Under the pieces are notes generated by a model, which was not told the origin of the DNA, searched no databases, and saw nothing but the letters and a program-made list of their open reading frames with translations. The translations under genes and the position numbers were made by a program. Positions 1-42,836 of a stretch of DNA of 64,000 nucleotides are shown in pieces (positions within the stretch are counted from its first letter, which is position 1; each line of letters starts with the position of its first letter). Origin of the DNA: a virus; IMG/VR virus record IMGVR_UViG_3300023181_000026, positions 32,001-96,000 of that record; one strand, 5' to 3'.

Positions 1-3000
1 TGTTTTGATATATTCTGTCTAGTTCTTCTTGTCCGTATTGGTCTACGATTGATCGTCTAAATTTTATAGGCTCTGTCCCTTCATTCTCTAAGATATTCCA
101 AAGAGAATTATCTCTAAATTCATTCCACTTATTTTTTATTTCAGTTTTTGTAAGCCCTGAGTTCTCTGGTCTTAGTTTATATTGATTATAAGTCATAAAC
201 CCTACACCCTCAACTGCTCTGATATCATCAAAAGTAGCTATGAATACTTTAGATTTAATAATCTGATCCGTAATTAAAAATCCCTCATAACCTAAATTGT
301 TAAAAGCAACTGCAACCCTGCCTAGTCCTGAGTTTTGAAGTCTATTCCTGAAATCTATTACTCCTCCCGCTTCCAAAACTTTATATATTTTAGAGCTCCT
401 GTTTATTTTTCCCGTTTCTTTTAGTAGGTTAGGTGCTTCTTTAAGGTCAAATTCCTTCTCAGCATATAAGTTAGAATCTGCCTGAATGAACTGTCCTAAT
501 CGCGCCTCAATAAAGTTTCTATTTACTGAACCTGTTAAAAAGTTGGTTAGAGTTACAGGAACTGAGAATGCTAAGCTTGAATATTGTACAAAACGGTGAA
601 TTACTAAGGCAAGCCTACTTACGTCAACTTTATATCTATTTAACAGGTTTATTTCTAATTTCTTAGATTGAGTTTTTCCATAGATATTAAAGTCTATAAA
701 AGAATCTGCCATTTGTAAAGCATTTGAAGCATCTCCTGTTTTACCATTAGTGAATTTTTGTTCTTCTACCTGTTGTCTTAAAGCCATCACAGAGGCTAAA
801 CTATTCTTTTTTTCTCTGTAAAGATTTGATTCATAGAGAAGTTCGGCGAAAGTCATTCCTAAACTTAAACTTACATCTCCTCTTTCTTCAAGGTCATAAA
901 TATATTTCATTGGAATTATATTCTGAGAATCATTTTCATCTCTAACCCCATAATCTAAATCATCTACCCTGTTTAAAAATGTATCCTTATAGCTTCTTTT
1001 TATTGTTTCACCGATTCCAACTCTATAAGCATCTGATAACTTTTCAACTTTAGATTTAGATAATTGCGGTAATTTGTTTATATCTGTAATTATTCCGTAG
1101 TTAGCTGATACTTTCCTATTTGCTTCATGCATTAAAGTAAGCAACTGAAAATCTTCTAAATTTTGAGTTGGGTTACCTTGACCGTCGAAATTAAATCGGT
1201 TATAATAATTTTCATTTCTGTACTTACTCTGTTTTGGTTGATACTGACCACCTTCCCAATTTGCATCAAAATTTTCATTTCGTTCATTTTCTGTAGTATT
1301 TTCATTCCAAGTATAATTAGGAGTAATTTCTACATACTGAGTTACGGGATATTCTTCCTGTAAAGCTTGTCTATCGTTAACTAATCTACTAGGATTTATA
1401 TCTCCGTTATTCAAAGCTTTTACAAATTCGGAATAACCTTTTGGCGCAAATCTTTTATAATAAGAATACAATTTTGTTCTTCCATAAGCTATTTCAAGTT
1501 TTGCAGTATTTTTAAATTCGGGAGAGTTTAATCTGTCTACTACTTCATCATAAAATTCATCTTCTGAAAGTTCTTCACTTAAACCAAAATAAGATTGAAA
1601 GAATCTTGCATATTTAGGCTCTATATTATCTGTAGTGCCACTTTGTAAGTCTTCTATCTTGCGAATAAATTTAGTTACATTTACTTGGTCGTCAGAAGAT
1701 ATATTCTTATAAAGAAAGTCGGCTTCTTTTATAGTACCTATCTCAGACTGTTTAATACCTGAATCTAATAAATCATCAAAATAAGATTGATTAACTGTAT
1801 TCTCAGTCTCTACTTGTGCTTCCTGTACTTCTTCAACTCCGTTACGCCTTAATATCTGATTGGCTTGTTGAAAACCTTTCTGTATCTCTGTGTCTAATTC
1901 TTGTACTCTTTGTTTTGCGGCAAGGCTCATTACAGGTACATCTGTCTCTGCTGGATTTCCTAATTTCTGATATTTCCTTAAAATGTCTGAACGCTCATTT
2001 AAAGCATTTTCTAACTGAAAAGCTATTTCATCAACTACATACGAATCCTCTTCTGAAACTTCTGCGTCTCTTAACCTTCTTATAATTTTAGGCTCTTTTT
2101 TAGCGTCTGTATCTTCCGACTTATTACCTAAAGCGTCATAAAACTCCTTAGAAAACCTTATTCCACCATTAGTCTGAACCCATTTTAAAGCCTCCTTATT
2201 TCCACTGGCTTGTTCTATAGCTTGTAAAGTCTGAGTAAACTCCTCTCTCAGCTTAAATATCTTATCTTTATTTCTTTCTGCAAAGTTAGCATCTGCCTGA
2301 ATTAAATCCTGAGCAATCTGCCATGCTATAGTACCGTCTTCTTTTGGATTACCATTCTCATCAGTTAAAGCTTTTGCAAATTTTCTTTCTCTTGCTAGAG
2401 CTTCCAGTTCTATACGATCCGCATCTGACATTATGTCTTGCGGGCTGTATTTCTTAGTTATTCTATATCTTTGAGAAGATAGATTTCTTAGAAAGTTTTT
2501 TGTTTCTGTATTCATCCAAGCAGTATCACTTTCTCTCTGTTCATAGTAAGCTTCTGTAAAAGGTCTTTCTATATTTTCATTTTTCCATGCATTTACTTCT
2601 TGCTCATACTGTTGCCTTTGAGCTTCTGTTAATGTTGGAATTCTTTTTAATAATTCTTTTCCGCCCTCTACATTTAGGATAGATTTTAAAATATTTATCT
2701 GAGTATTTTGCAAATCTTGGAGAAATTGCCCCATATTGATTCCAGAAATAAGGCTACCTGTATGATTTCCATCACTATCAGTTTCTACTATATTTCTAAA
2801 CTTTCCTATATTATATCCATTATCTTCTATAAAATTTAATAAGCCTGTTACATCTGTTTGAGTTTCAATATTGGCTTTCGTTCTATTATCGGAGAATATC
2901 TTACCTAAAAGGTTTAAAAATATATTATTTGAAAGTCTTAATTGACCAAAAGTTCTTCCAAACCACGTTATATCTTTTGTTTCCTGAGTAATTTTTGTTC

Positions 3001-31275: not shown

Positions 31276-31512
31276 TTAAGCTTTTGGCTTCCTGGGTTTT
31301 GGTTTTGGTATACCAACTTCTAAAATAGCCTCCTGAGTAAAAGGTGTCCAATCTACCTCTTCAAAGTCAAGTGGATCAAGTTTGGTTATAGCATCATCTA
31401 AATTAGCAAGCCATTCTCCTGCTGGATTTTTCTTGATATCATAATCAAAATCTTTGTCTTGTAGTAAAGAACACGCTGTGTCTTCTGAAATTTTTGCAAC
31501 TCTTTCTGCCAT
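31276..31512 (-). CDS. Small protein downstream of tail fibre, with basic Pro-rich C-terminus
   Basis: 78 aa, ends EVGIPKPKPRKPKA. Confidence 0.7.
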   Translation of the reverse strand: MAERVAKISEDTACSLLQDKDFDYDIKKNPAGEWLANLDDAITKLDPLDFEEVDWTPFTQEAILEVGIPKPKPRKPKA

Positions 31513-31538
31513 TTTTTATTTATTTGTGATTTAAATTA

Positions 31539-32894
31539 TTAGTATTGTATTTCTTGTCCAACTGTAAATGCTGCACTTCCAGCACCACTAGTAACAGCCC
31601 TTAGTCTAACATACCATCCTGCTTGTACTTCCCCTTGAACATTGTTGGTAGAAGTTTTATTAAGAGCTACTGCAACTGCTACGGCATCTGAAAATCCTGC
31701 TTGACTTATACTTGTCCAAGTTGAGTTATTAGGACTAACTTCTAGGTATACCATTGAACTTCCTGACGATAAAAGTAATGTAAGAGCTATAGTGTGAGTT
31801 ATTGTATAACTAACTCTAGTATTTCTAGTAGTTGATATCTGCACTCCTGCTGCATTAATAGTTTTTACAGCAGTATTGTTAAAACTAGGCGAACTTACTG
31901 TATAATTAGGAATATTTATGTTTCCTGTACTATTGTCATAAGTTGCCGCTCCTGAAGTGCCTGTAGTTGTTAAACTTATAGCTGCTCTAACTCCTGCTTG
32001 ATTTATTCCATCTGTAATACCATATCCTGCTAAAGTTGTAGGTTTTCCTGTAAGTGAACTAAAACTCTGTGGAGGAACTGTTGTTAGAAATCCTGCTCCG
32101 TTAGTTAATTGATTAGTATTTGTTGGGATAGTTGGTGTACCTGTTAAAGTACTGTAAGGAATATTAGACCCTGTTGCTATTGCTCCTACATCAGAAGCAT
32201 TCAAAGTAACTGCGCCTGTTTTTGTATTTACAGACGTAACAGGATAATTTACAGTTGGTATAGTTGGTTTATTTGCCAAATCTACATAGTTACCACTTGT
32301 AGCCACATTTGCTAGCCCTGATATCTTTGATGCATTTAAGGCTGTTATCCATGCAGGATTATTATAACTTTCATCTGTAGAGACATTTCCTACTTGCCAA
32401 CTTATATTGGTCTCTAAAGTTTTTGTAATTCCATTAACCGTTATACTTCTATTAAGTGGAGCTTTTGTAGCTATTTCAGATTCCATATTAGCTATAGCTG
32501 TATTAGCTACAGGTACGCTCATAAACTGAGAATCATCCACACTCAATTCATTTGAACTCATTAATAACCCACTCCCTGCTGTTATCTTATTCTCTAAGTC
32601 ATTGTAATCCCCCGTAAAAGCTACATCAGAAAATGCAGGTTTATTTAAAGTTGTACCCCAATCAGAAGATGTCATACTTTTAAGATATCTACCTGGATCT
32701 GTTTCTAAAAGTTCATTCGGCTTTAAGACGGTTGTGCCATTATCTTCTAACATAGAATTCTCATCAAAATACCAAGTTTCTAATGGTTTAGGGTTTTCGT
32801 AATCTACTGTCACTACGGCTACAGCTTGTCCGTGAGCTAACAGGTAATCTCTCATGTCAGTTAAATCATAAACATTAAGATAATCTCTAATCAA
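31539..32894 (-). CDS. Tail fibre protein
   Basis: Fibre repeats VATSGNYVDLANKPTIP, SFSSLTGKPTTLAGYGITD, VTSVNTKTGAVTL; TTG start. Confidence 0.75.
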   Translation of the reverse strand: MIRDYLNVYDLTDMRDYLLAHGQAVAVVTVDYENPKPLETWYFDENSMLEDNGTTVLKPNELLETDPGRYLKSMTSSDWGTTLNKPAFSDVAFTGDYNDLENKITAGSGLLMSSNELSVDDSQFMSVPVANTAIANMESEIATKAPLNRSITVNGITKTLETNISWQVGNVSTDESYNNPAWITALNASKISGLANVATSGNYVDLANKPTIPTVNYPVTSVNTKTGAVTLNASDVGAIATGSNIPYSTLTGTPTIPTNTNQLTNGAGFLTTVPPQSFSSLTGKPTTLAGYGITDGINQAGVRAAISLTTTGTSGAATYDNSTGNINIPNYTVSSPSFNNTAVKTINAAGVQISTTRNTRVSYTITHTIALTLLLSSGSSMVYLEVSPNNSTWTSISQAGFSDAVAVAVALNKTSTNNVQGEVQAGWYVRLRAVTSGAGSAAFTVGQEIQY

Positions 32895-32916
32895 TTTTAT
32901 ATTTGTTTTTGGGTTA

Positions 32917-35900
32917 CTATTTGAAAACTTTTACTGTAAATGTTGCACTTGTAGGATTAATAGCTGCTACAGAAAAATTAATAAATCTTACTGTAACTGT
33001 GTTAGTTGCTGATACAAAAGCTGTGTATAAAGAAGCAGCTGCTGGAGTAGGAGAACCTAAACTCACTGCATCTCCTATTGATGCACCTGTAACTGCTATT
33101 GTTAAGTCTGACGAAGCATTTGCTGCCGTTGAAGGAAAATCTAAAGTTGCTGATCCTGTTAAAGTATTTCCTGCCAGTATTTGTAAAGCATTCTGAATAC
33201 TTGTAGCTGCTGTAATTGTACCAACAGTAGGTGTCCAACCAACTAATGAAACATTTCCTCTTACAGCAGCTGAAAAGTTTACAGAACTTCCATCACCTCT
33301 TATATATGTGGCAGATGTGCCCGAACCAGTCCATGCTATAGAACTACCTGTAAAGTATGGAAGTCCATTTCCTGAAAGAGTGTCTTGTTTCGTACCTAAT
33401 GCTGTGAAAACTCCGCCACTTGATACAGCATTCGGACTTCCAGATGTTGGCATATCATCAATAGTAACTCCACCTCCAGATATAGCTCCATCAACATATT
33501 CCTTTGTTACTAAAGTCTTAGCTCCATAAATATAAGTTGAACCAGAAGGATAATTAAGTCCTATATTATTATTGTCAGTAAATACTCTTGTGTTATCTAC
33601 TATATTAGTTGAAGTTCCGCTAAATGGAGTTGTTAGACCATTATATATACCTGAATGAAGTATCGTTAAACCTCTATCATAAATATTACTTATCTCTACA
33701 TTCCTCATACCTCCCGAAGAAGGGTTTAAATATATTGCAGGGAAAGTGTTATTCTTCGCTTTAGTAAAATTAGTAATTGTAGATTCTGCTAAAGTTCCTT
33801 GTAAATTAATTCCATATCTGGAATTATACATTTTTATATTATCAATACTGATATTCCTACAAGTACCCATAGGAGTAGCTCCTCCATAATCAGGATTAAA
33901 TGATCCAAATATAGCAAAACCTCCTGTAATTTCACGCGTCAATTCAGAAGCTACAGAGCTATCAGTAATGTTTCTAAGACTTACATTGTATATTTCAGAG
34001 CCCATTGTATTTAAACATCTAAAAATACTGTTATAACAATATACATTAGCGTTTTCAATTATAATGTCATGAATATTATCATACTCAGGCATATATGTTT
34101 GTCCTGTAACAGTTGGAGTGTTTAAATTACCTGGTACATCGTCAGGAGAGGCTAGACCAGCTCCTAATATCCCTGCTGTAAATAAATTATCATCTGTATG
34201 ACCTGTAATATTAATAAATCTACCAAAAGATCCTCCCATTACATTTTTAATACCATCGCAATTAGGAAATCTTTGAGGAATCCCGTTAATGTCGCGATCT
34301 CTAGGACTATCTAAATGAATGCGCATAGCGTCATAATAGGTACATCTTTCAAAGCTTATGGAATAACCATGAGCATTTCTAACAGTTACTCCCTCTATAC
34401 TACAATTATCTGTAAAACAAAAGGCAACCATAATATTACGCCAATCTCCTGTCTGTTTTTCTGATGGGTTGGCTGCATCTGATCCATAGGCATAAACTAC
34501 TCCAGAAGGTGGTGTTGCCGTAGAAGTAAGGCTTAAGGTTTTGTTATTGTCACCAGAAGATCTAGGATTATCAGCTCCTTCTAATATTGCACTGCCAATA
34601 CCTATTATGTGTATATTTTCTTTTGGATTCAGCCAAGGCTCAGAAATACCTATACCTGTATTTACTGTCCTGAATAGATTATCTCTTGAAGTATCTGATA
34701 ACTTTAATTTGCTGTCTACAATGTATATTACTGTATTTGTATCTAGTAAAATAGCGTTATCTATCATCCAAACATTAGAGCCTCTCTGTTCGTTATAGCC
34801 TATCCATACAACTTTACTGTTATTTTGAGAAACATAGTCGGCGGCTTGCTGTATTCTTTCAGTATCTGTTCCTTCAAAGTTTTCTGGATATACAAAATTA
34901 GAGCTATCTAAAAAAGACTGTAAAACTACGTCATTACCATCAAAAATTAAATTGCCTGCCGTAGTAGAATCTTGATTAGGTGTTTTAGAATAGGGCTCTA
35001 GCTCTATATTTGGAGTGATTTGAAAACCTGTGGCTCTAAAAGCTTTGCCTGAATTACCTGCAAATTGTATAATTCCATTTGATGTAAGAGATGTAGTTGG
35101 AGTGAAACTCGCACTAACTCTGTATATATCGTCTGATATTAATTCCACTACAGGATAAAGAGACGCATGAATATTACCTATCTTTAGACTAAAGTCTGCG
35201 TTTGATTGCGCCGATGTAAATCCTACCACAGGTTTAGAATTGTCATCCATTTTTACATAAACAGAAAGGTTATATGTAACTCCTGCTTGTAGCGTAGCAC
35301 CGTACCAATTTTTATTTGTTCCTAAAGTTCCTCCAAACCTAACGGCTGTGGTGAAATCATTAATACCCCAATTAAAACTTTCATATGTTATGTTAGAGGC
35401 TGTACCTTCATTTTCAGTTGGCTCTGAATTTAGAAATAAATTAAACTGCTGCTTTCTTCTGGTTACAAGATTATAATTATTAATATATAATCCTCTGTAT
35501 TCTAAACCACCTAATGCTGCCGATTGATCATTTTCAAAGACAGGTAGCCCTATAGCTGTAGCTTTATTATTTATTTCTAGAATCCCTGTACTACTTATCG
35601 TACCCGAAGTTTGTATATTTTTATCCTGATAATCTCCTGTATTATTAACTAAAAATTCCCCTTTATAAATAGCACTTCTTTCTAAATTTAGATATATTGC
35701 TTCAAGATTAGTATCAGAATTTACAAACATTACATCTTCAAAAGACCCATCGTTTTTAGAAATATAAGTCTCTAATATATCTTGCCAATTAATTAAATCT
35801 TGGGATACCAGCATTCCAGCTCTTGCGCCAGATGTCCCTGTAGGTGATGTCATTCCATGAACTGTCATGTAATACAATCCATTATGTACTTTTATGTCAT

Positions 35901-37068
35901 CGGGTATAATTGCAGATCCCCAATCTATGGTAGCATTTGATATATTATATGAAGGTTTTGATTGATTAAATCCTGATCCCACAGCTACAGGATTTTCATT
36001 TTTAATAAAGCTTATGCCGTCCGTACTAGTTGCTAGCCCTATTGCTCCTGTTTGCCTTCTTGGTGCGTCAATCCCTTCATAGTATAAATAAAACGTTCCT
36101 TCATTATAATAAGTTAAAGGACTTCCCACTGAGTCAGCATCCCAATCTTCTCCACTACCGCTAGTTAAAACAATTCCTTGATTATCCCAATTTATTAAGT
36201 CTAAAGAGGTGTGTAATTGTATAGTTTTTATATTATTACTAGACTCTTCACTGTAGCAATAATAAGTCCCATCTACTTTTATAACATAAGGGTCTTCTGC
36301 GGGGGTATCAAATAGTAGTCCGTTTTTGATGAACGTTTTTCCCTCGTCCGTACTAATAGCCATTCCAACTCTTGAATCTATACCTGCTGTTCCATTTACA
36401 CCTGTATAAAAAATATAGTGTTTTTTATCTTCATCAATAAAATAATTTCCTATCTCTCTAAGTGTAGAATCCCATTCACCCGTAGAGGCTTCTATTAAAG
36501 GGTCGGGGTAAGGAGCATTCGATATGTAGTTGAATGAAAGATTGTTTATTAAACTTTGGTTACTTATTAACTCTTTAACTGTACCTACATCTGGAATACT
36601 TCTCTCGTCTGTTATTTGTTTTGCACTGTAATCTTGGGCGTATCTTAGACCCTTACTTTCTTTTGTATCTAGTATTTCTATTCCTTCAGGACTTCCTGAT
36701 GCTCCGCTTGGGTATTGAATACCTACATAACCTTCTGGGGCATTATTACCTATAGAAAATCCTTCTGGGTATAAAGATAGCATCCCTCCTTCACTTGTCT
36801 CACTACTTATCGATTGTAGTAAAATATTTGTAGGGACACTTCCGTCACTCCCTGTCTCTAAAACTTTTTGAAGGTTTGGACTTACACCCCCCCCTCCGTC
36901 TCCTATAAGATAGGGAATAGCATTAGCGTCTGTAACATACATTTGTATATCTTCACCAGACTTTATAAAATATATTGTGTGTGCTGTTAAATCTTTTTGT
37001 GCGGGAAGCCCTAACAAGAAGTTATGAGCCACGATTGGAATACAATGATTCAAATTATTATTTTTCAT
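32917..37068 (-). CDS. Multi-domain tailspike/depolymerase: five-bladed propeller glycosidase-like domain, carbohydrate-binding-like domain, pectin-lyase-like beta-helix
   Basis: Propeller repeats (VGMAISTDEGKTF, AEDPYVIKVDGTYYCY, IGLATSTDGISF) and the beta-helix opening motif YPENFEGTDTERIQQAAD. Confidence 0.75.
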   Translation of the reverse strand: MKNNNLNHCIPIVAHNFLLGLPAQKDLTAHTIYFIKSGEDIQMYVTDANAIPYLIGDGGGGVSPNLQKVLETGSDGSVPTNILLQSISSETSEGGMLSLYPEGFSIGNNAPEGYVGIQYPSGASGSPEGIEILDTKESKGLRYAQDYSAKQITDERSIPDVGTVKELISNQSLINNLSFNYISNAPYPDPLIEASTGEWDSTLREIGNYFIDEDKKHYIFYTGVNGTAGIDSRVGMAISTDEGKTFIKNGLLFDTPAEDPYVIKVDGTYYCYSEESSNNIKTIQLHTSLDLINWDNQGIVLTSGSGEDWDADSVGSPLTYYNEGTFYLYYEGIDAPRRQTGAIGLATSTDGISFIKNENPVAVGSGFNQSKPSYNISNATIDWGSAIIPDDIKVHNGLYYMTVHGMTSPTGTSGARAGMLVSQDLINWQDILETYISKNDGSFEDVMFVNSDTNLEAIYLNLERSAIYKGEFLVNNTGDYQDKNIQTSGTISSTGILEINNKATAIGLPVFENDQSAALGGLEYRGLYINNYNLVTRRKQQFNLFLNSEPTENEGTASNITYESFNWGINDFTTAVRFGGTLGTNKNWYGATLQAGVTYNLSVYVKMDDNSKPVVGFTSAQSNADFSLKIGNIHASLYPVVELISDDIYRVSASFTPTTSLTSNGIIQFAGNSGKAFRATGFQITPNIELEPYSKTPNQDSTTAGNLIFDGNDVVLQSFLDSSNFVYPENFEGTDTERIQQAADYVSQNNSKVVWIGYNEQRGSNVWMIDNAILLDTNTVIYIVDSKLKLSDTSRDNLFRTVNTGIGISEPWLNPKENIHIIGIGSAILEGADNPRSSGDNNKTLSLTSTATPPSGVVYAYGSDAANPSEKQTGDWRNIMVAFCFTDNCSIEGVTVRNAHGYSISFERCTYYDAMRIHLDSPRDRDINGIPQRFPNCDGIKNVMGGSFGRFINITGHTDDNLFTAGILGAGLASPDDVPGNLNTPTVTGQTYMPEYDNIHDIIIENANVYCYNSIFRCLNTMGSEIYNVSLRNITDSSVASELTREITGGFAIFGSFNPDYGGATPMGTCRNISIDNIKMYNSRYGINLQGTLAESTITNFTKAKNNTFPAIYLNPSSGGMRNVEISNIYDRGLTILHSGIYNGLTTPFSGTSTNIVDNTRVFTDNNNIGLNYPSGSTYIYGAKTLVTKEYVDGAISGGGVTIDDMPTSGSPNAVSSGGVFTALGTKQDTLSGNGLPYFTGSSIAWTGSGTSATYIRGDGSSVNFSAAVRGNVSLVGWTPTVGTITAATSIQNALQILAGNTLTGSATLDFPSTAANASSDLTIAVTGASIGDAVSLGSPTPAAASLYTAFVSATNTVTVRFINFSVAAINPTSATFTVKVFK

Positions 37069-37072
37069 TTTC

Positions 37073-37396
37073 TTACCAGTCTGTTTTACCTAAGTTAGAG
37101 GTTATTTGACAAACGGCATGGGGTTTACATTCTTTAGTGTGATCTTTCTTTTTCGGTTTATTTTTCCTATGGCATTCGTACCCCCTTTCTCTTTTTATCA
37201 TTTCAGAAACTTCGCAACTAGGAATCTTTAAAATATTATAATAAGCTAATAGCCACAAATATTTCTTCTTATCTCCTAAACAGTCTACTTTAAATTTATC
37301 ATTTAAGAACATATTATCCCCTTCAGAAATTAATTGTTCTCTGAAGTCATTGTATAAGTTCTCTTGATTTATTTTTAGTATCTGTTGTTGTGACAT
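37073..37396 (-). CDS. Conserved tail-region protein
   Basis: ORF tightly packed in the structural operon. Confidence 0.6.
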   Translation of the reverse strand: MSQQQILKINQENLYNDFREQLISEGDNMFLNDKFKVDCLGDKKKYLWLLAYYNILKIPSCEVSEMIKRERGYECHRKNKPKKKDHTKECKPHAVCQITSNLGKTDW

Positions 37397-37911
37397 TCTT
37401 TACAGTTTAATATATTTTGAGCTTCTTCAAAAAATCTTTGTGCTTCTTTTATTTCGCCAACAGTTGTGTGTGCTATTGCTTTTTCTAAGTAGAAGTCTGA
37501 TTTTTGTATAAGTTCAAATTTTTGTTTAGTGACATCATTGTAATGAAATCCTATTTCTATAAGTTTTTTGGCGCGATTTAAATTATGAACATCTGTTTTT
37601 AGATAATATTTCTCTTCAAAGAATTCTGATTGAGCAGAGAAGACCCTTATTTTCCAAATTCCATCACTCAAATCCGACAACTCATCATCACAATCAGAAC
37701 ATCCTAAATAAAGTGTCTCACTGTTAAATTCACTTATAGTCTTCTTATTAAATGTGTAAGTTATAGCCTCGTTAGAACCTGGAGGTGTTATTGAAATATA
37801 GCTTGCGTCATCATAATATATTAACCAATTACTATAATCTCCAATAAGTAGAACCTTTGGATCTTTTGAATCAAATACTTGAAATCTTATTTCTACTTTT
37901 CCTGTTGGCAT
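37375..37911 (-). CDS. Conserved tail-region structural protein
   Basis: LSDGIWKIRV...KYYLKTD segment and terminal CKEC resemble crAss-like tail-region proteins. Confidence 0.6.
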   Translation of the reverse strand: MPTGKVEIRFQVFDSKDPKVLLIGDYSNWLIYYDDASYISITPPGSNEAITYTFNKKTISEFNSETLYLGCSDCDDELSDLSDGIWKIRVFSAQSEFFEEKYYLKTDVHNLNRAKKLIEIGFHYNDVTKQKFELIQKSDFYLEKAIAHTTVGEIKEAQRFFEEAQNILNCKECHNNRY

Positions 37912-37916
37912 GATAT

Positions 37917-38030
37917 TTATGCTTCTAATTCTTCAATCCTTGCTTCTAAGGCATCAATTTGAGCTTGCATTTGATTGATTACTAAATTTAATTTTTGTGG
38001 TAATCCGAACCAAGTAAATAATATTTCCAT
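37917..38030 (-). CDS. 37-aa coiled-coil microprotein (not in ORF track)
   Basis: MEILFTWFGLPQKLNLVINQMQAQIDALEARIEELEA*; exactly fills the gap between its neighbours. Confidence 0.65.
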   Translation of the reverse strand: MEILFTWFGLPQKLNLVINQMQAQIDALEARIEELEA

Positions 38031-38032
38031 TT

Positions 38033-38671
38033 TTAAAATTCTATTATTGTTTTTATTCCTACTGTTTTATCTGTTGTCGCTGTTCCTAGTATACTTATTG
38101 TTCTGTATCTATATCCTATCCCTGCTTCATAATTAGTTTTTTGCGTATCCAGATTTCTATTTATTCCTCCCATTATAAGGATACCTGTAGTTTTATTTTT
38201 TACAGTTGTTACTTCTTTTAATGTTTCTTTAACTGTTGTTTTTATTTCTTTGCGCAGATATTTTATTTCATTATTATCAAGCTTTCCATAAACAGTTGTT
38301 TTTACATTTATCTTTACGTTTTCATCTTCAAAATCTGAACTATACTCTCTTTTTCTTGCGGCATCTGCTAAAACTTTATATCTTGAAATAGAATCTTTAG
38401 CTGATTTAAGCTCATCTAAGAGGCTTTCTTGTAGTGGGGAGGGCAAGTATATAGGTTTGCCTATAAAGACTGTGTCAGGCTCTGAAACAGGTATTTCTGA
38501 CTGATTTGAAGGCTCTTTAAATTCTCCTGATACTTCAGGTATTTTTACTTCCTTATCTGTTATTGTAATTTTAGTTTCTTCGGTAGTGTCACAACTTTTA
38601 GTTAAAGATAAAATTATAAGTACTATAACTGCTATGCCTAATACATAATGCTTCCAATCTAGATTTTTCAT
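38033..38671 (-). CDS. Spanin-like membrane/lipoprotein of the lysis cassette
   Basis: N-terminal hydrophobic helix followed by TKSC (lipobox-like Cys); C-terminal alternating beta-strands ending in Phe; directly after the endolysin. Confidence 0.5.
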   Translation of the reverse strand: MKNLDWKHYVLGIAVIVLIILSLTKSCDTTEETKITITDKEVKIPEVSGEFKEPSNQSEIPVSEPDTVFIGKPIYLPSPLQESLLDELKSAKDSISRYKVLADAARKREYSSDFEDENVKINVKTTVYGKLDNNEIKYLRKEIKTTVKETLKEVTTVKNKTTGILIMGGINRNLDTQKTNYEAGIGYRYRTISILGTATTDKTVGIKTIIEF

Positions 38672-39258
38672 GCGCCAAATATTTTTTTATTATCTGTTAC
38701 AGCTTCTAATCTGTGTTTAAATCCATTGGCATCACCGTATTTTGAAGTTTTTCTGCCTATATTTATTAAATCACTTATACTGTCAATGTCATCTTTATCC
38801 GCTAATAAATTACCATTTATTTTAGTCCAGAAGTTTATGGCAGCGATTATAGAATCTGCTTCCGTCAATAGCAAATCAGGATTATTAACATAGTCTATTC
38901 CTGTATCTTTTGTCAACGCTTTGTAATTATCCTTACCTGTAGTCATGATAAAGCCTCTTCCTCTATACTTATAACCTTCCCCCGTAGATTCCAATCCATT
39001 TCCCATTCTACCTCCATAAACCCTATTACCTATAGCTTGAGGCTTTTTTTCGTAGTTTTTAGCTTCTTGTAATGTTTTAAAATACTTAGGAAAGATCTCT
39101 AGTAATCTTTTTGCGGAATAATTTAAATTTTCGGATATAGGTTTTAAGCCAGATTCAGCTTCAAGTTGCCCAAAGAAATGACTTAACCTCAAGGGTGTAT
39201 TTATTTTGGCTTTATTCAGTATAGTTTTGTATTTCTTTGAAAGTTCTAGTGGTGTCAT
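38668..39258 (-). CDS. Endolysin, glycoside hydrolase family 19
   Basis: HFFGQLEAES, ENLNYS and YRGRGFIMTTGKDNY motifs. Confidence 0.9.
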   Translation of the reverse strand: MTPLELSKKYKTILNKAKINTPLRLSHFFGQLEAESGLKPISENLNYSAKRLLEIFPKYFKTLQEAKNYEKKPQAIGNRVYGGRMGNGLESTGEGYKYRGRGFIMTTGKDNYKALTKDTGIDYVNNPDLLLTEADSIIAAINFWTKINGNLLADKDDIDSISDLINIGRKTSKYGDANGFKHRLEAVTDNKKIFGA

Positions 39259-39509
39259 AAATCTTCTTCATTTTTAACTTGTGGCTCTTTTGATTGAAAC
39301 TTCTTATCGAAAATTGTTCCTCCTACCATAGCTGATAAGAATAATAAAAGAGAATCGAAAACTGCTTTTCCTTCTCCATTAGGTGTTTGGTCATAAGCTA
39401 CAAATCCACCCAATAAAAGAGTAAATATAAATGTAATTAATATTATAAAGCTTTTACGGCTGAATTTCCCTGATGGTGTCTGTAGTAGGTCTAATAGAAG
39501 CTTTTTCAT
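39255..39509 (-). CDS. Holin candidate (2 TM)
   Basis: Two hydrophobic helices and a charged C-terminus; adjacent to the endolysin. Confidence 0.65.
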   Translation of the reverse strand: MKKLLLDLLQTPSGKFSRKSFIILITFIFTLLLGGFVAYDQTPNGEGKAVFDSLLLFLSAMVGGTIFDKKFQSKEPQVKNEEDL

Positions 39510-39738
39510 GCGCTAAAGTTATTTTTTGTACTTCTAAGTGGAAGCTGTCTACTTCTTTTTCTATTTTTAAGTTTTTGCTGTATAAGGTAGTGTTTTTTAT
39601 TAGTTGTTCTGTTCTTGCAACATCTACCATATATACTCTCCGCTCACTTAATTCTTCTGTTTTTGGATTTGTGTCGCCAAAATAAATAAAAGCAGAGATG
39701 ACGCAAGATACTCCTGTTAAAATTGTACTCTTAATCAT
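39454..39738 (-). CDS. Small N-terminally anchored lysis-cassette protein
   Basis: Hydrophobic N-terminus; overlaps both neighbours. Confidence 0.45.
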   Translation of the reverse strand: MIKSTILTGVSCVISAFIYFGDTNPKTEELSERRVYMVDVARTEQLIKNTTLYSKNLKIEKEVDSFHLEVQKITLAHEKASIRPTTDTIREIQP

Positions 39739-40073
39739 TTCTTTTTATACTGTTTAATGGTTTCATAATCTTTATAAAGGCGTTCTTGCAATTCGTCATA
39801 CTTCTTACTCCAAAACTCATTAGATTTTTCCAAGTCTGCTTGCCTTTTGTCATTACATTCTTGGATCCGTAAGTTAAGAATAGATATAATACTATCATTT
39901 CTATTAGATCGGCTATCAGAAATATCAGTATCTCTTTCATTGTCAGAATGTAGTCTATAATTTTCGTAAAACATTGCGCCTAAAACTAAAAGTAAAAGAA
40001 ATATCACAGCATTTTTTGGATTTTGTCTTGTTATCCATTGAGATAATTTAATCCATAACGAGATTGCTGTCAT
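39735..40073 (-). CDS. Single-TM coiled-coil protein (holin/antiholin or spanin-like)
   Basis: AVIFLLLLVLGAMFY helix followed by a coiled coil. Confidence 0.5.
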   Translation of the reverse strand: MTAISLWIKLSQWITRQNPKNAVIFLLLLVLGAMFYENYRLHSDNERDTDISDSRSNRNDSIISILNLRIQECNDKRQADLEKSNEFWSKKYDELQERLYKDYETIKQYKKK

Positions 40074-40407
40074 TTTTATCTTTGTTGAATATTGAAATTA
40101 TTATTAATAAAATAAAGTGGTTCAATATTACGCTCTCATATAGTTCATAATATACTTCAATAGGATACCTTAAGTCAATCTCTGTAATAAGATTTAAAAC
40201 TAATACAGTGGAGAGGGTCATTATAGATTCAAATCTCCAACTTTTAAAATAAAAAAGAACTCCTAATAAAGATATTACTAATAAAATCGTATCTATGAAT
40301 GCAAACAATTTATGATTCAAATAGTAGAAATCATTTTCTACGAATATGTAAAGTGTCATGTACAATGTTAGCATCAAAAACGGTGCAAATTGCGTTACAC
40401 TTTTCAT
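40048..40407 (-). CDS. Four-TM membrane protein
   Basis: Four hydrophobic segments in 119 aa. Confidence 0.6.
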   Translation of the reverse strand: MKSVTQFAPFLMLTLYMTLYIFVENDFYYLNHKLFAFIDTILLVISLLGVLFYFKSWRFESIMTLSTVLVLNLITEIDLRYPIEVYYELYESVILNHFILLIIISIFNKDKNDSNLVMD

Positions 40408-40413
40408 GCTATT

Positions 40414-40479
40414 TTATTTTTTAGGTTTCTTGGGCTTATTTTTTGGCTTAGGTATGCCAACTTTATTTTTGTTATTCAT
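40414..40479 (-). CDS. 21-aa basic Pro-rich micropeptide MNNKNKVGIPKPKNKPKKPKK (not in ORF track)
   Basis: ATG at 40479, TAA at 40414-40416; shares VGIPKPK with the 31276..31512 protein, with different synonymous codons. Confidence 0.55.
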   Translation of the reverse strand: MNNKNKVGIPKPKNKPKKPKK

Positions 40480-40500
40480 TGTGTAGTAAGTTTGAAATTA

Positions 40501-40530
40501 AGGGGAAGTTGTTACGCCTCCCCTCTTTTT
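40501..40530. terminator. Intergenic hairpin after the 761-aa structural gene
   Basis: Minus strand AGGGGAGG-cgtaacaa-CTTCCCCT; the T-run lies on the + side. Confidence 0.55.
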
Positions 40531-40550
40531 CTATTTAGTTGTTTGTCTAT

Positions 40551-42836
40551 TTATACGCTAAAAGCCCTGATACCTTCCAAACCAGCCGCACCTGCAATAC
40601 TATTCAGTAAGTTTTCTACTGGTTTGTGTTGTCCGACTTGTGCTAAGATGTGGTATATAAAAGTTTCTCCATGTTTAAGGGCTGGTTGTTGAGCAAATGT
40701 CGATCTACATACTTCTATAGAAAAATCTACATATTGAACCGATTGGTCTAATACTGATTCCTCGTCTGTGAATAGTACCCTTGTTAGTGGACTCATATGC
40801 GCCTCTTCACCTGTGAAATAAACTCTATCCCTAGCCTCTAACCATTGGAAGTTTCCTCCTAAGTGAGTTCTTGGTTTCCAAGTTGATAGGTAAGTAACTG
40901 CCATTGGTTCATCTTTTAATTCGCCAATACCTTCTCTTACTTCATCTAAATGTCCTCCGCTTACTCTAATCATTACAGAACTATCTGTAAATCCTATTTT
41001 GTCTCTAAGATATTCGTTAGATCTAATCTCTAATTTTTTACCTCTGAACCTGATACCCATTAAAGAAGTTGTAGGTTCTGGAGATTCTACTATTTTCCAT
41101 TCATTACCTTCATAAGGTCTTGGCTCTTCTGAAACATAAAAGTCTTGGAAAATTGGTGAACATTCTTCGCAAACCATATTAGTAATAACCTCTGCTTGGT
41201 AACGTGTTTGACAGCCTCCTGTAACGGGTAAGTCTACAACTGCTACTGCACCTACTGTTCCTGCTAAGTTAGTTGTAGCATTAGCTATTGATATTGCTGG
41301 AAAAGCGGTAGTTGCATGAGTGAAAGTAAGTACTGCGCCGTTGGCGGTTACGGTTACCCCTTTATCTGCTAGAAGTGCCGCGCCGTGAGTTGATACAAAA
41401 TTAGTAGCTGTTACTGCAAGAGATGTTGCAAATGTTGCTAGATAAGCTGTACCTGCCACTGTAATATTTGCTGTTCCAGAAGTTCCTGTTAGAGTTACTG
41501 TCTGTGCTGAATTAAGTGAAGGTGCATCTGCAATTACAATATTATTATCAGGATAATGTGCTTGAAGTTCCGCTAGTCTGTTTTCACCGCATTCATTATC
41601 AGCAAGTGTAATTGTGTAAAGTTGAACCGATACTTCACAAGTATCTCCTAATACCCAAGCAACTCCTGCTGGTGCAACTCCTGTACATACATCTGATACT
41701 TCTCCTAAAAGAGTAATTTCTGCTGTGCCTTTTACTGGTGTAGCTGTAAGGAAAGTAGTTTTTTGTGCGTCTGTAAGTTCTGCTGTCAGGATAAGTGTAT
41801 AACTTCCTACTCCGCCATCTTGACCTACTTTTACTACTGTACCTGCTACAAAACCTGCTAAGTCATCTACAGTTGTTGATAAATCTGCACCATCATCTTC
41901 AATCTTTACACTGTAAAGGAATCCTCCTGCTACTTCTGTATAGCCTGCTGGACAGTCTTCACAATCTTTAATTAGAGTTGTTGTGAATGGTGCTACGTAC
42001 GCTGTAAGAAGAGTATTAGTCTCAGTTACGGTTTCATAAATAGAGGTAAGTCCTTGACGTTCTTTTAAAACAATTTTATTTTCTGGGTAACGTGATTGAA
42101 CTGAAGCTACAGAAGCTTGATCCCCCATATCTTGAATAGTAAGAGTCTGATAAAATCTATCTTCTGTCTCAGGTTCTGTACCTCCTGTTGAAAGTTCCAC
42201 TGGAGTAATATCTACAACCTCTTGCATCTCAACTCCACCTCTTAATTGAAATCTTCTTAGTTGTTCAATTGCTTCAAGTACATATGGTCTAGCGTTTATT
42301 GCTTCACAGTTATCACCTGCTTCACATACTTCTGTACCATAGAACTTTTCTGGATCTAAATATACACTTGTAATAACCTTGTTATCAGGATAGCCATACA
42401 TTCCTATAAGTTCTCCCGAAAGTTCCACCGTGATTTTTTTACGATCTGCTCTTATAAGAGTGATTGCTGTTTCAGGGTCAATTCCGTTATAACCTAAAAT
42501 AACGTCATCCACTTCTTGTTCTGTTCTTTCTGGCACAGATACACTGACGCCTTTAACATCGTTAAGAGAGAAAGGTACTGAACTCATAGCTTTATTAGAA
42601 TGAGAACGAGAATTAGAAAGATTTCCTCTACCTACTTTTATAACATAGTTTTCATTTTTATTTCTTCCCGCGAAAGATGAAATAGCTTTTTGACCATTTC
42701 CATTAGCGTCTGCCTCTTTCATAGAAAATACTCCCACTTGACCTTTTGCAAGATTCAAAGAACCTCCTGCTGTCATAGTAGCACCGTTCAATATGGCAAA
42801 GTAACGGTGGATTTGTGAATTGTTTGTTTGTGACAT
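40551..42836 (-). CDS. Virion structural protein (auxiliary capsid/decoration-type, crAss-like head operon)
   Basis: Position after the MCP operon; Ala/Thr-rich inserted domain; CxxC motifs. Confidence 0.55.
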   Translation of the reverse strand: MSQTNNSQIHRYFAILNGATMTAGGSLNLAKGQVGVFSMKEADANGNGQKAISSFAGRNKNENYVIKVGRGNLSNSRSHSNKAMSSVPFSLNDVKGVSVSVPERTEQEVDDVILGYNGIDPETAITLIRADRKKITVELSGELIGMYGYPDNKVITSVYLDPEKFYGTEVCEAGDNCEAINARPYVLEAIEQLRRFQLRGGVEMQEVVDITPVELSTGGTEPETEDRFYQTLTIQDMGDQASVASVQSRYPENKIVLKERQGLTSIYETVTETNTLLTAYVAPFTTTLIKDCEDCPAGYTEVAGGFLYSVKIEDDGADLSTTVDDLAGFVAGTVVKVGQDGGVGSYTLILTAELTDAQKTTFLTATPVKGTAEITLLGEVSDVCTGVAPAGVAWVLGDTCEVSVQLYTITLADNECGENRLAELQAHYPDNNIVIADAPSLNSAQTVTLTGTSGTANITVAGTAYLATFATSLAVTATNFVSTHGAALLADKGVTVTANGAVLTFTHATTAFPAISIANATTNLAGTVGAVAVVDLPVTGGCQTRYQAEVITNMVCEECSPIFQDFYVSEEPRPYEGNEWKIVESPEPTTSLMGIRFRGKKLEIRSNEYLRDKIGFTDSSVMIRVSGGHLDEVREGIGELKDEPMAVTYLSTWKPRTHLGGNFQWLEARDRVYFTGEEAHMSPLTRVLFTDEESVLDQSVQYVDFSIEVCRSTFAQQPALKHGETFIYHILAQVGQHKPVENLLNSIAGAAGLEGIRAFSV

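Follow-up and report, generated by a model that had tools for sequence, protein, structure and literature searches.

The 64,000-nt window analysed here comprises bases 32001–96000 of the 131,611-bp IMG/VR virus record IMGVR_UViG_3300023181_000026, a phage genome with direct terminal repeats, and contains two open-reading frames (ORFs) which share the motif V-G-I-P-K-P-K: a micro-ORF at the head of the lysis module, and a larger gene which we refer to as p78. The phage is crAss-like; the order of its terminase, portal, capsid, ring protein and 761-aa structural protein genes is as in phage csAssE-Sib and in Cellulophaga phages phi17:2 and phi4:1, both of which are crAss-related, and a CrAss_Ring_2 domain is encoded a few genes off in a close relative. 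Contigs of this phage and its near relatives derive from metagenomes of leaf litter, compost, fermentation, soil and silage. The minus strand carries every gene of the region, and the lysis cassette is made up, in order, of the micro-ORF, a gene encoding a protein with four predicted transmembrane helices (the 4-TM gene), overlapping genes for 112-, 94- and 84-aa proteins, a GH19 endolysin gene and a gene for a 212-aa protein (Table 1). A first-pass annotation of the window had noted the shared motif and its differing codons, had placed the micro-ORF downstream of a hairpin and 6 nt before the 4-TM gene, and had taken the 4-TM gene to open a lysis cassette; each of these observations held on reanalysis, and the cassette, with its GH19 endolysin and surrounding small membrane proteins, is real.

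Table 1 Features of the p78 gene, the micro-ORF and the lysis module. Positions are those of the window, apart from the last row, which gives positions in contig L139.
Feature	Position	Strand	Description
Micro-ORF	40414..40479	minus	ATG start; 21 codons, then TAA; peptide net charge +9; opens the lysis module as its first cistron
Motif V-G-I-P-K-P-K in the micro-ORF	40441..40461	minus	Residues 7–13
p78, 78 aa	31276..31512	minus	Acidic core and polybasic tail; ~75-aa protein family
p78 C-terminal tail, residues 66–78	31279..31317	minus	Hydrophobic residue-G-I-P, then a basic run; net charge +5; disordered in the model
761-aa virion structural protein	40551..42836	minus	Upstream of the hairpin; 34% identical to Cellulophaga phage phi17:2 gp063; context only
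Hairpin, terminator-like	~40494..40531	minus	Between the 761-aa structural gene and the micro-ORF; 9-bp stem
119-aa 4-TM protein	40048..40407	minus	Four predicted transmembrane helices; orphan in the protein database
Three overlapping small membrane-protein genes (112, 94 and 84 aa)	39255..40073	minus	Between the 4-TM gene and the endolysin
GH19 endolysin	38668..39258	minus	Pfam PF00182; PHROG 181, E = 2e-57; anchors the lysis cassette
212-aa protein	38033-38671		N-terminal hydrophobic segment, then Cys, then acidic residues, lipoprotein-signal-like; C-terminus beta-strand-like, last residue Phe
L139 micro-ORF	978..1055		25 codons, ATG start; directly before the 4-TM gene; I-G-V-P-K-x-K; charge +11

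The exact motif is found at just two sites in the six frames of the 131.6 kb genome, namely the micro-ORF and p78. Across it the two genes are identical at 18 of 21 nucleotides, and all three differences are synonymous. Past the motif, and after one two-codon indel, the similarity runs on as P-[K/R]-K-P-K with four of six further residues identical, and the stop codons coincide; in total seven aligned codons differ between the micro-ORF and the p78 tail, five synonymously and two non-synonymously. When the peptide was aligned locally to the 224 long ORFs, the p78 tail gave the top score (53), which was reached by 2 of 3000 composition-preserving shuffles of the peptide (35.5 ± 3.5), and the similarity is beyond what chance would produce. 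Shared 7-mers are frequent in six-frame space (327 in a crude list, mostly in low-complexity non-coding frames and the terminal repeat), this background however does not compare with an in-frame match joining the ends of two ORFs. A relaxed form of the motif, G-[IVLS]-P-x-x-[KR], was confined to micro-ORFs and p78-family tails, aside from two matches without a basic tail. The exact motif had 39 matches in IMG/VR, all in chance contexts, none of them in a basic C-terminal tail or a micro-ORF, and a degenerate micro-ORF pattern had no match in IMG/VR and a single out-of-frame chance match in JGI metagenomes. The encoded peptide has five prolines among its 21 residues and no hydrophobic stretch, Val and Ile being its only hydrophobic residues besides the initiator Met.

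A word-based search with p78 returned p78 alone. The close relative L008 encodes a 74-aa orthologue which is 36% identical to it and keeps both the motif, as V-G-I-P-R-P-R, and the basic end, and a profile built from these two sequences and searched against 1.8 billion representatives recovered seven more proteins of 71–77 aa (E-values 6e-17 to 2e-4). The resulting family of nine representatives (71–78 aa) is, as judged from these searches, previously unnamed and newly recognised here: it had no matches in Pfam, PHROGs or the PDB, and a profile search of PDB sequences was not significant. All nine members combine an acidic core (net charge −7 to −15) with a tail of charge +5 or +6, in which a hydrophobic residue is followed by G, then I or V (once S), then P-x-x-[K/R] and a basic run. 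G67 and P69 are invariant, as are a few core positions, and the tail block is the most conserved part of the family. Its members belong to the present clade of crAss-like phages, with soil and compost as sources. The earlier proposal that conservation lies at the level of the peptide is borne out both in these orthologues and in the L139 micro-ORF described below.

The core of the family is an acidic alpha/beta region of ~60 aa with V-A-K-I, D-A and W blocks, and the cores are 25–48% identical between members, even where both neighbouring genes are 87–94% identical. Wherever the context is visible, the p78-family gene lies directly upstream of the gene for a conserved acidic protein of 117–118 aa, and it mostly follows a large fibre-like gene, with a GIY-YIG-like gene in that place in two contigs; in L131 and L132 the GIY-YIG gene is just upstream. 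One member, P0011, sits on a 129-kb ENA contig of sample ERZ27397449, where a 68-nt gap precedes a 115-aa gene. The slot which p78 occupies (window 31276-31512; loci L008, L128, L130, L133 and L134) is a diversity hot-spot between two hairpin-bounded blocks, and its variability suggests either diversifying selection or cassette replacement. These features give p78 the look of a host-interaction gene that evolves fast but keeps its tail constant. We also considered p78 as a tail-fibre chaperone co-varying with the fibre tip and rejected it, as the tips are 87–89% identical vs. 37–38% for the p78 cores.

An AlphaFold model of p78 made from the nine-sequence alignment (predicted local distance difference test score, pLDDT, of 79.6; 64.5 in the first model) shows a small alpha/beta domain and a disordered tail. 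For neither model did Foldseek return a known fold in BFVD or the PDB at E ≤ 0.001, the best VIA-align Z score was 3.1, and prediction of a complex between p78 and its 118-aa neighbour scored 0.02. All three versions of the micro-ORF match the tail consensus of the nine family members. The p78-type acidic core is absent from them, with three to six residues preceding the motif, and by sequence the micro-ORF is a tail-only paralogue of the p78 family and not a full member.

The micro-ORF is intact in the Logan contigs L004–L008 and in soil and silage runs, the intact copies coming from leaf litter, compost, fermentation, soil and silage; in L005–L008 and the soil and silage contigs it carries two substitutions, Asn3Ser and Ile9Val. 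In L005 and run X7, similarity to the window breaks off 5 nt upstream of the micro-ORF ATG, so the micro-ORF travels with the lysis module. A much more diverged version was found in L139, a contig reached via a 54%-identical homologue of the 112-aa protein, in which the 4-TM protein is 44% identical to that of the window. Lack of conservation in relatives had been named by the first-pass annotation as evidence that would speak against its proposal; in L139 too, however, the 4-TM gene is immediately preceded by the micro-ORF. The final six codons of this ORF, with the stop, are those of the window, save one synonymous difference in a Pro codon, its length differences are all multiples of three, and the other two frames are closed. 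In the motif 7 of 21 nucleotides have changed, all synonymously or conservatively except for one Pro-to-Thr replacement at a variable motif position, whilst the spacer beside the micro-ORF can no longer be aligned between L139 and the window. This pattern, as read from the two sequences, argues for selection on the peptide. The distance from the micro-ORF stop to the 4-TM start is 4–6 nt across both lineages (6 nt in the window). Directly upstream in L139 is a 306-aa GIY-YIG-like gene (L139:65-985), probably a homing endonuclease, whose stop is overlapped by the micro-ORF ATG.

In a sister lineage (L135–L138) the middle of the micro-ORF is deleted, with its first and last ~15 nt still recognisable, and the 4-TM gene is kept, which means that the micro-ORF is dispensable. 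Amongst 80 loci of distant relatives (36–40% identity in the structural protein) we found neither the motif nor a K/P-rich micro-ORF following the structural gene, and none of the distant relatives inspected had a comparable multi-TM gene at the position of the 4-TM gene.

Judged on the comparative sequence evidence, the micro-ORF is likely to be a coding ORF under selection, and we would equally expect it to be a real, weakly expressed mini-gene derived from the 3′ end of a p78-like gene. The interpretation that we favour goes further and carries a probability of roughly 0.45–0.5: the micro-ORF would be a translated, motif-only copy of the p78-family docking tail which is made with the lysis operon and acts in trans, on the same acidic or polyanionic putative partner. 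Its most likely origin would be a duplication that copied the 3′ end of a p78-like gene along with the stop codon, and it would be transcribed with the late lysis operon, as the first of its cistrons. The disordered, cationic peptide would then take the acidic or polyanionic putative docking site of the p78 tail, as a motif-only “microprotein” produced at the time of lysis-gene expression. In a more specific form, to which we give a low probability, the free peptide would be a timed competitor, the lysis-operon copy of the tail displacing or mimicking target-bound p78 late in infection. In such a scheme p78 might be the product of an arms-race-like gene, such as one for a mimic of nucleic acid or for a factor which is injected or associated with the virion, and its basic tail would hold it on the target; as a variant, the peptide might saturate the anionic site of the p78 tail on cell debris and thereby spare progeny phages from re-adsorption.

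Several observations weigh against a translated, trans-acting copy. The start context of the micro-ORF is poor, at the 8th percentile of the genome’s true starts, lower in L008 and at the 13th–19th percentile in L139 and L005. Both changes in the close variants are non-synonymous, and the micro-ORF, with 2 changes in 66 nt, is closer in its density of change to the spacer (4 in 56 nt) than to the adjacent genes (8 in 1239 nt), although close variants tell little about selection. The micro-ORF is carried by two independent lineages only and is internally deleted in the sister lineage, and the V-G-I of p78 may, going by the model, just cap the last beta-strand of the fold. Much of this would suit the main rival explanation, an untranslated remnant: a p78-like gene would have been duplicated, and the decaying 3′ end of that copy would by now have no role beyond that of an A-rich 5′ leader to the 4-TM gene. 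The coincident stops are also what a copied gene end would leave, and the last ~15 nt, which form the 4-TM leader, are kept in all four lineages. A remnant would not, however, be expected to keep an ATG-initiated ORF with its motif in L139, at a divergence where the neighbouring spacer is unalignable, nor to have acquired only in-frame indels and motif changes that are conservative, bar the Pro-to-Thr change at a variable position; in addition, the motif is encoded 40–70 nt ahead of the 4-TM start, in a part that is not A-rich. We regard a remnant as unlikely, yet as the explanation to be taken most seriously after the favoured one.

The short distance between the micro-ORF stop and the 4-TM start in both lineages, in a cassette of overlapping, coupled cistrons throughout, could also indicate a leader peptide acting in cis, an upstream ORF at which stalling or termination-reinitiation sets 4-TM expression and hence the timing of lysis. 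SecM and ErmCL are regulatory leader or arrest peptides, and like them the micro-ORF is short and ends a few nucleotides before the next gene. Its Lys and Pro codons are abundant, however neither a Pro-Pro stalling motif nor a known arrest motif is present, and the RNA showed no alternative fold. The 4-TM start is strong by itself (87th percentile of true starts) and unpaired in the minimum-energy fold, the gene survives without the upstream ORF in L135, and a role in cis leaves the same motif on the tail of a separate, conserved protein family unexplained. The first-pass annotation had suggested a ribosome-acting leader coupling tail-fibre expression to lysis; on this evidence we consider a purely cis-acting leader improbable, and the coupling rests on a wrong label, as the gene upstream encodes a virion structural protein of crAss-like type for which a tail-fibre identity is undemonstrated. 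Its further suggestion was a pair of peptide and membrane protein, serving as a signal or a regulator of lysis timing; a secreted signal is unlikely, as the peptide has no N-terminal hydrophobic signal sequence, and an arbitrium-like system was rejected on this ground, the neighbouring 4-TM protein being an orphan without a family match.

As the micro-ORF and the 4-TM ORF of the window lie in one frame, with TAA plus two codons between them, readthrough of the stop might add an N-terminal extension to the 4-TM protein, and a cationic N-terminus would match an N-in topology. The S107/S105 pair of phage lambda is a dual-start holin/antiholin pair in which both starts lie in a single ORF, and the likeness is that extra positive charge is encoded right upstream of the membrane protein which heads the lysis genes. 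In our case a stop codon stands between the ORFs, TAA separates them in all variants, and the micro-ORF stop aligns with that of p78. Aragorn found no tRNA or tmRNA (transfer-messenger RNA) genes across the 131.6 kb genome, hence no suppressor. In L139 the two ORFs are in different frames, with 83 nt from start to start, which contradicts an extension, makes the same-frame layout of the window a coincidence and leaves readthrough with a very small probability. Just as implausible is that a nucleic-acid element, the small palindrome TTGGY-N8-RCCAA, is conserved instead of the peptide. It forms a 5-bp stem at both window copies and the third-base difference between them is compensatory, yet the genome holds 2 copies against 1.9 expected by chance, and the palindrome is an automatic consequence of the Val-Gly...Pro-Lys codons. 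Rfam gave no relevant match. The palindrome is contradicted by L139 and by the family alignment, as it is not retained in L139 or in most family tails where the peptide persists.

A peptide of 21–25 aa and charge +9 to +11 in a lysis cassette might, finally, be an envelope-active polycation which, once the holin triggers, is set free to destabilise the outer membrane or to bind anionic polymers of the envelope. The disruptin gp28 of phage phiKT is a 56-aa protein with an amphipathic helix, and hydrophobic membrane binding is what defines it (10.1101/515445). The micro-ORF peptide passes the cut-off used to screen for disruptin candidates (<80 aa, net charge ≥ +4; 10.1101/515445), and like gp28 it is small, highly cationic, without a signal sequence and encoded inside the lysis cassette, where a canonical lipoprotein o-spanin was not recognised by eye. 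It differs in being Pro-rich and non-helical; with five prolines in 21 residues and two hydrophobic residues (three with the initiator Met) it has no amphipathic helix, and hydrophobic membrane association is precluded. The 112-aa and 212-aa proteins are possibly spanin-like, and the gene for p78, which has this tail as well, lies well away from the lysis genes. A disruptin-like role is, in our estimation, doubtful.

The trans-acting, motif-only copy that we favour has a parallel in the eukaryotic microProteins, such as the LITTLE ZIPPER and Id proteins, which, as paralogues consisting of a motif or a domain only, compete with a larger protein. The likeness is that a very small product consists of just the interaction segment of a larger protein from the same genome, however microProteins usually present a folded dimerisation domain, whereas in this phage the segment is a basic, disordered tail, for which competition is only proposed. 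A loose likeness is to the proline-rich antimicrobial peptides of the oncocin/Bac7 type, in which repeated P-R-P units and an aromatic/Leu anchor mediate binding in the ribosomal exit tunnel. The micro-ORF peptide, too, is of ~20 aa and cationic with Pro alternating with basic residues (P-K-P-K), and the I-P-R-P-R of two p78-family tails resembles the L-P-R-P-R core of these peptides. It is, however, Lys- and not Arg-rich, lacks the aromatic-Leu anchor and would be made intracellularly, and the p78 motif, being C-terminal to a folded domain, is ill-suited to binding in the tunnel.

ORFs of ~20 codons are ignored by gene callers, and the micro-ORF is a rare case, from an uncultured crAss-like phage, in which one has comparative backing: its motif is common to an independent protein family, it is retained over a large divergence, and a natural deletion variant exists. 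The p78 family itself is a new group of small, acidic proteins whose basic tail is strictly conserved, and its genes occupy a hypervariable slot in the tail-fibre module. Should the peptide act in trans on the partner of the tail, it would be, to our knowledge, the first motif-only “microprotein” in a phage lysis module, and a synthetic 21-mer would be a simple handle for fishing out that partner. Should it be a timed competitor, it would amount to a phage “microprotein” switch tying a host-interaction protein to the lysis programme.

The hairpin upstream of the micro-ORF has a fold energy of −25 kcal/mol (z = −3.1), and its stem is kept and its loop variable in L006–L008. A block of 96.5% identity between the window and L008 begins at this hairpin and spans the lysis genes. 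The edges of the two mosaic blocks shared with L008 (96.5% and 90% identity) coincide with two terminator-like hairpins, at window positions 40535 and 31269, and between and outside the blocks the DNA of the window and L008 is 65% identical or unalignable. Neither the micro-ORF region nor the 4-TM protein had a match among GenBank phages in DNA and protein searches. In IMG/VR, scans with the 761-aa or the 119-aa protein singly found no relatives, and a profile search with the 112-aa protein found no match; in the ESM Atlas, p78 and the 4-TM protein returned leads at noise level only.

Within the cassette, the 4-TM protein could be a holin or antiholin. The 84-aa protein has two transmembrane helices, and its homologues adjoin the endolysin in distant relatives, whilst the 212-aa protein may belong to the lysis system as an outer-membrane component. 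At one and the same position of the cassette the endolysin has been exchanged, with GH19 in the window and L008 and GH108 plus PG_binding_3 in the L135/L136 lineage (L135:10810-11307), the neighbouring small membrane-protein genes being retained. Beyond the 212-aa gene, the window has a 37-codon ORF (37917-38030) where L006 and L008 have a 102-aa gene; it may be what truncation has left, or else another small gene.

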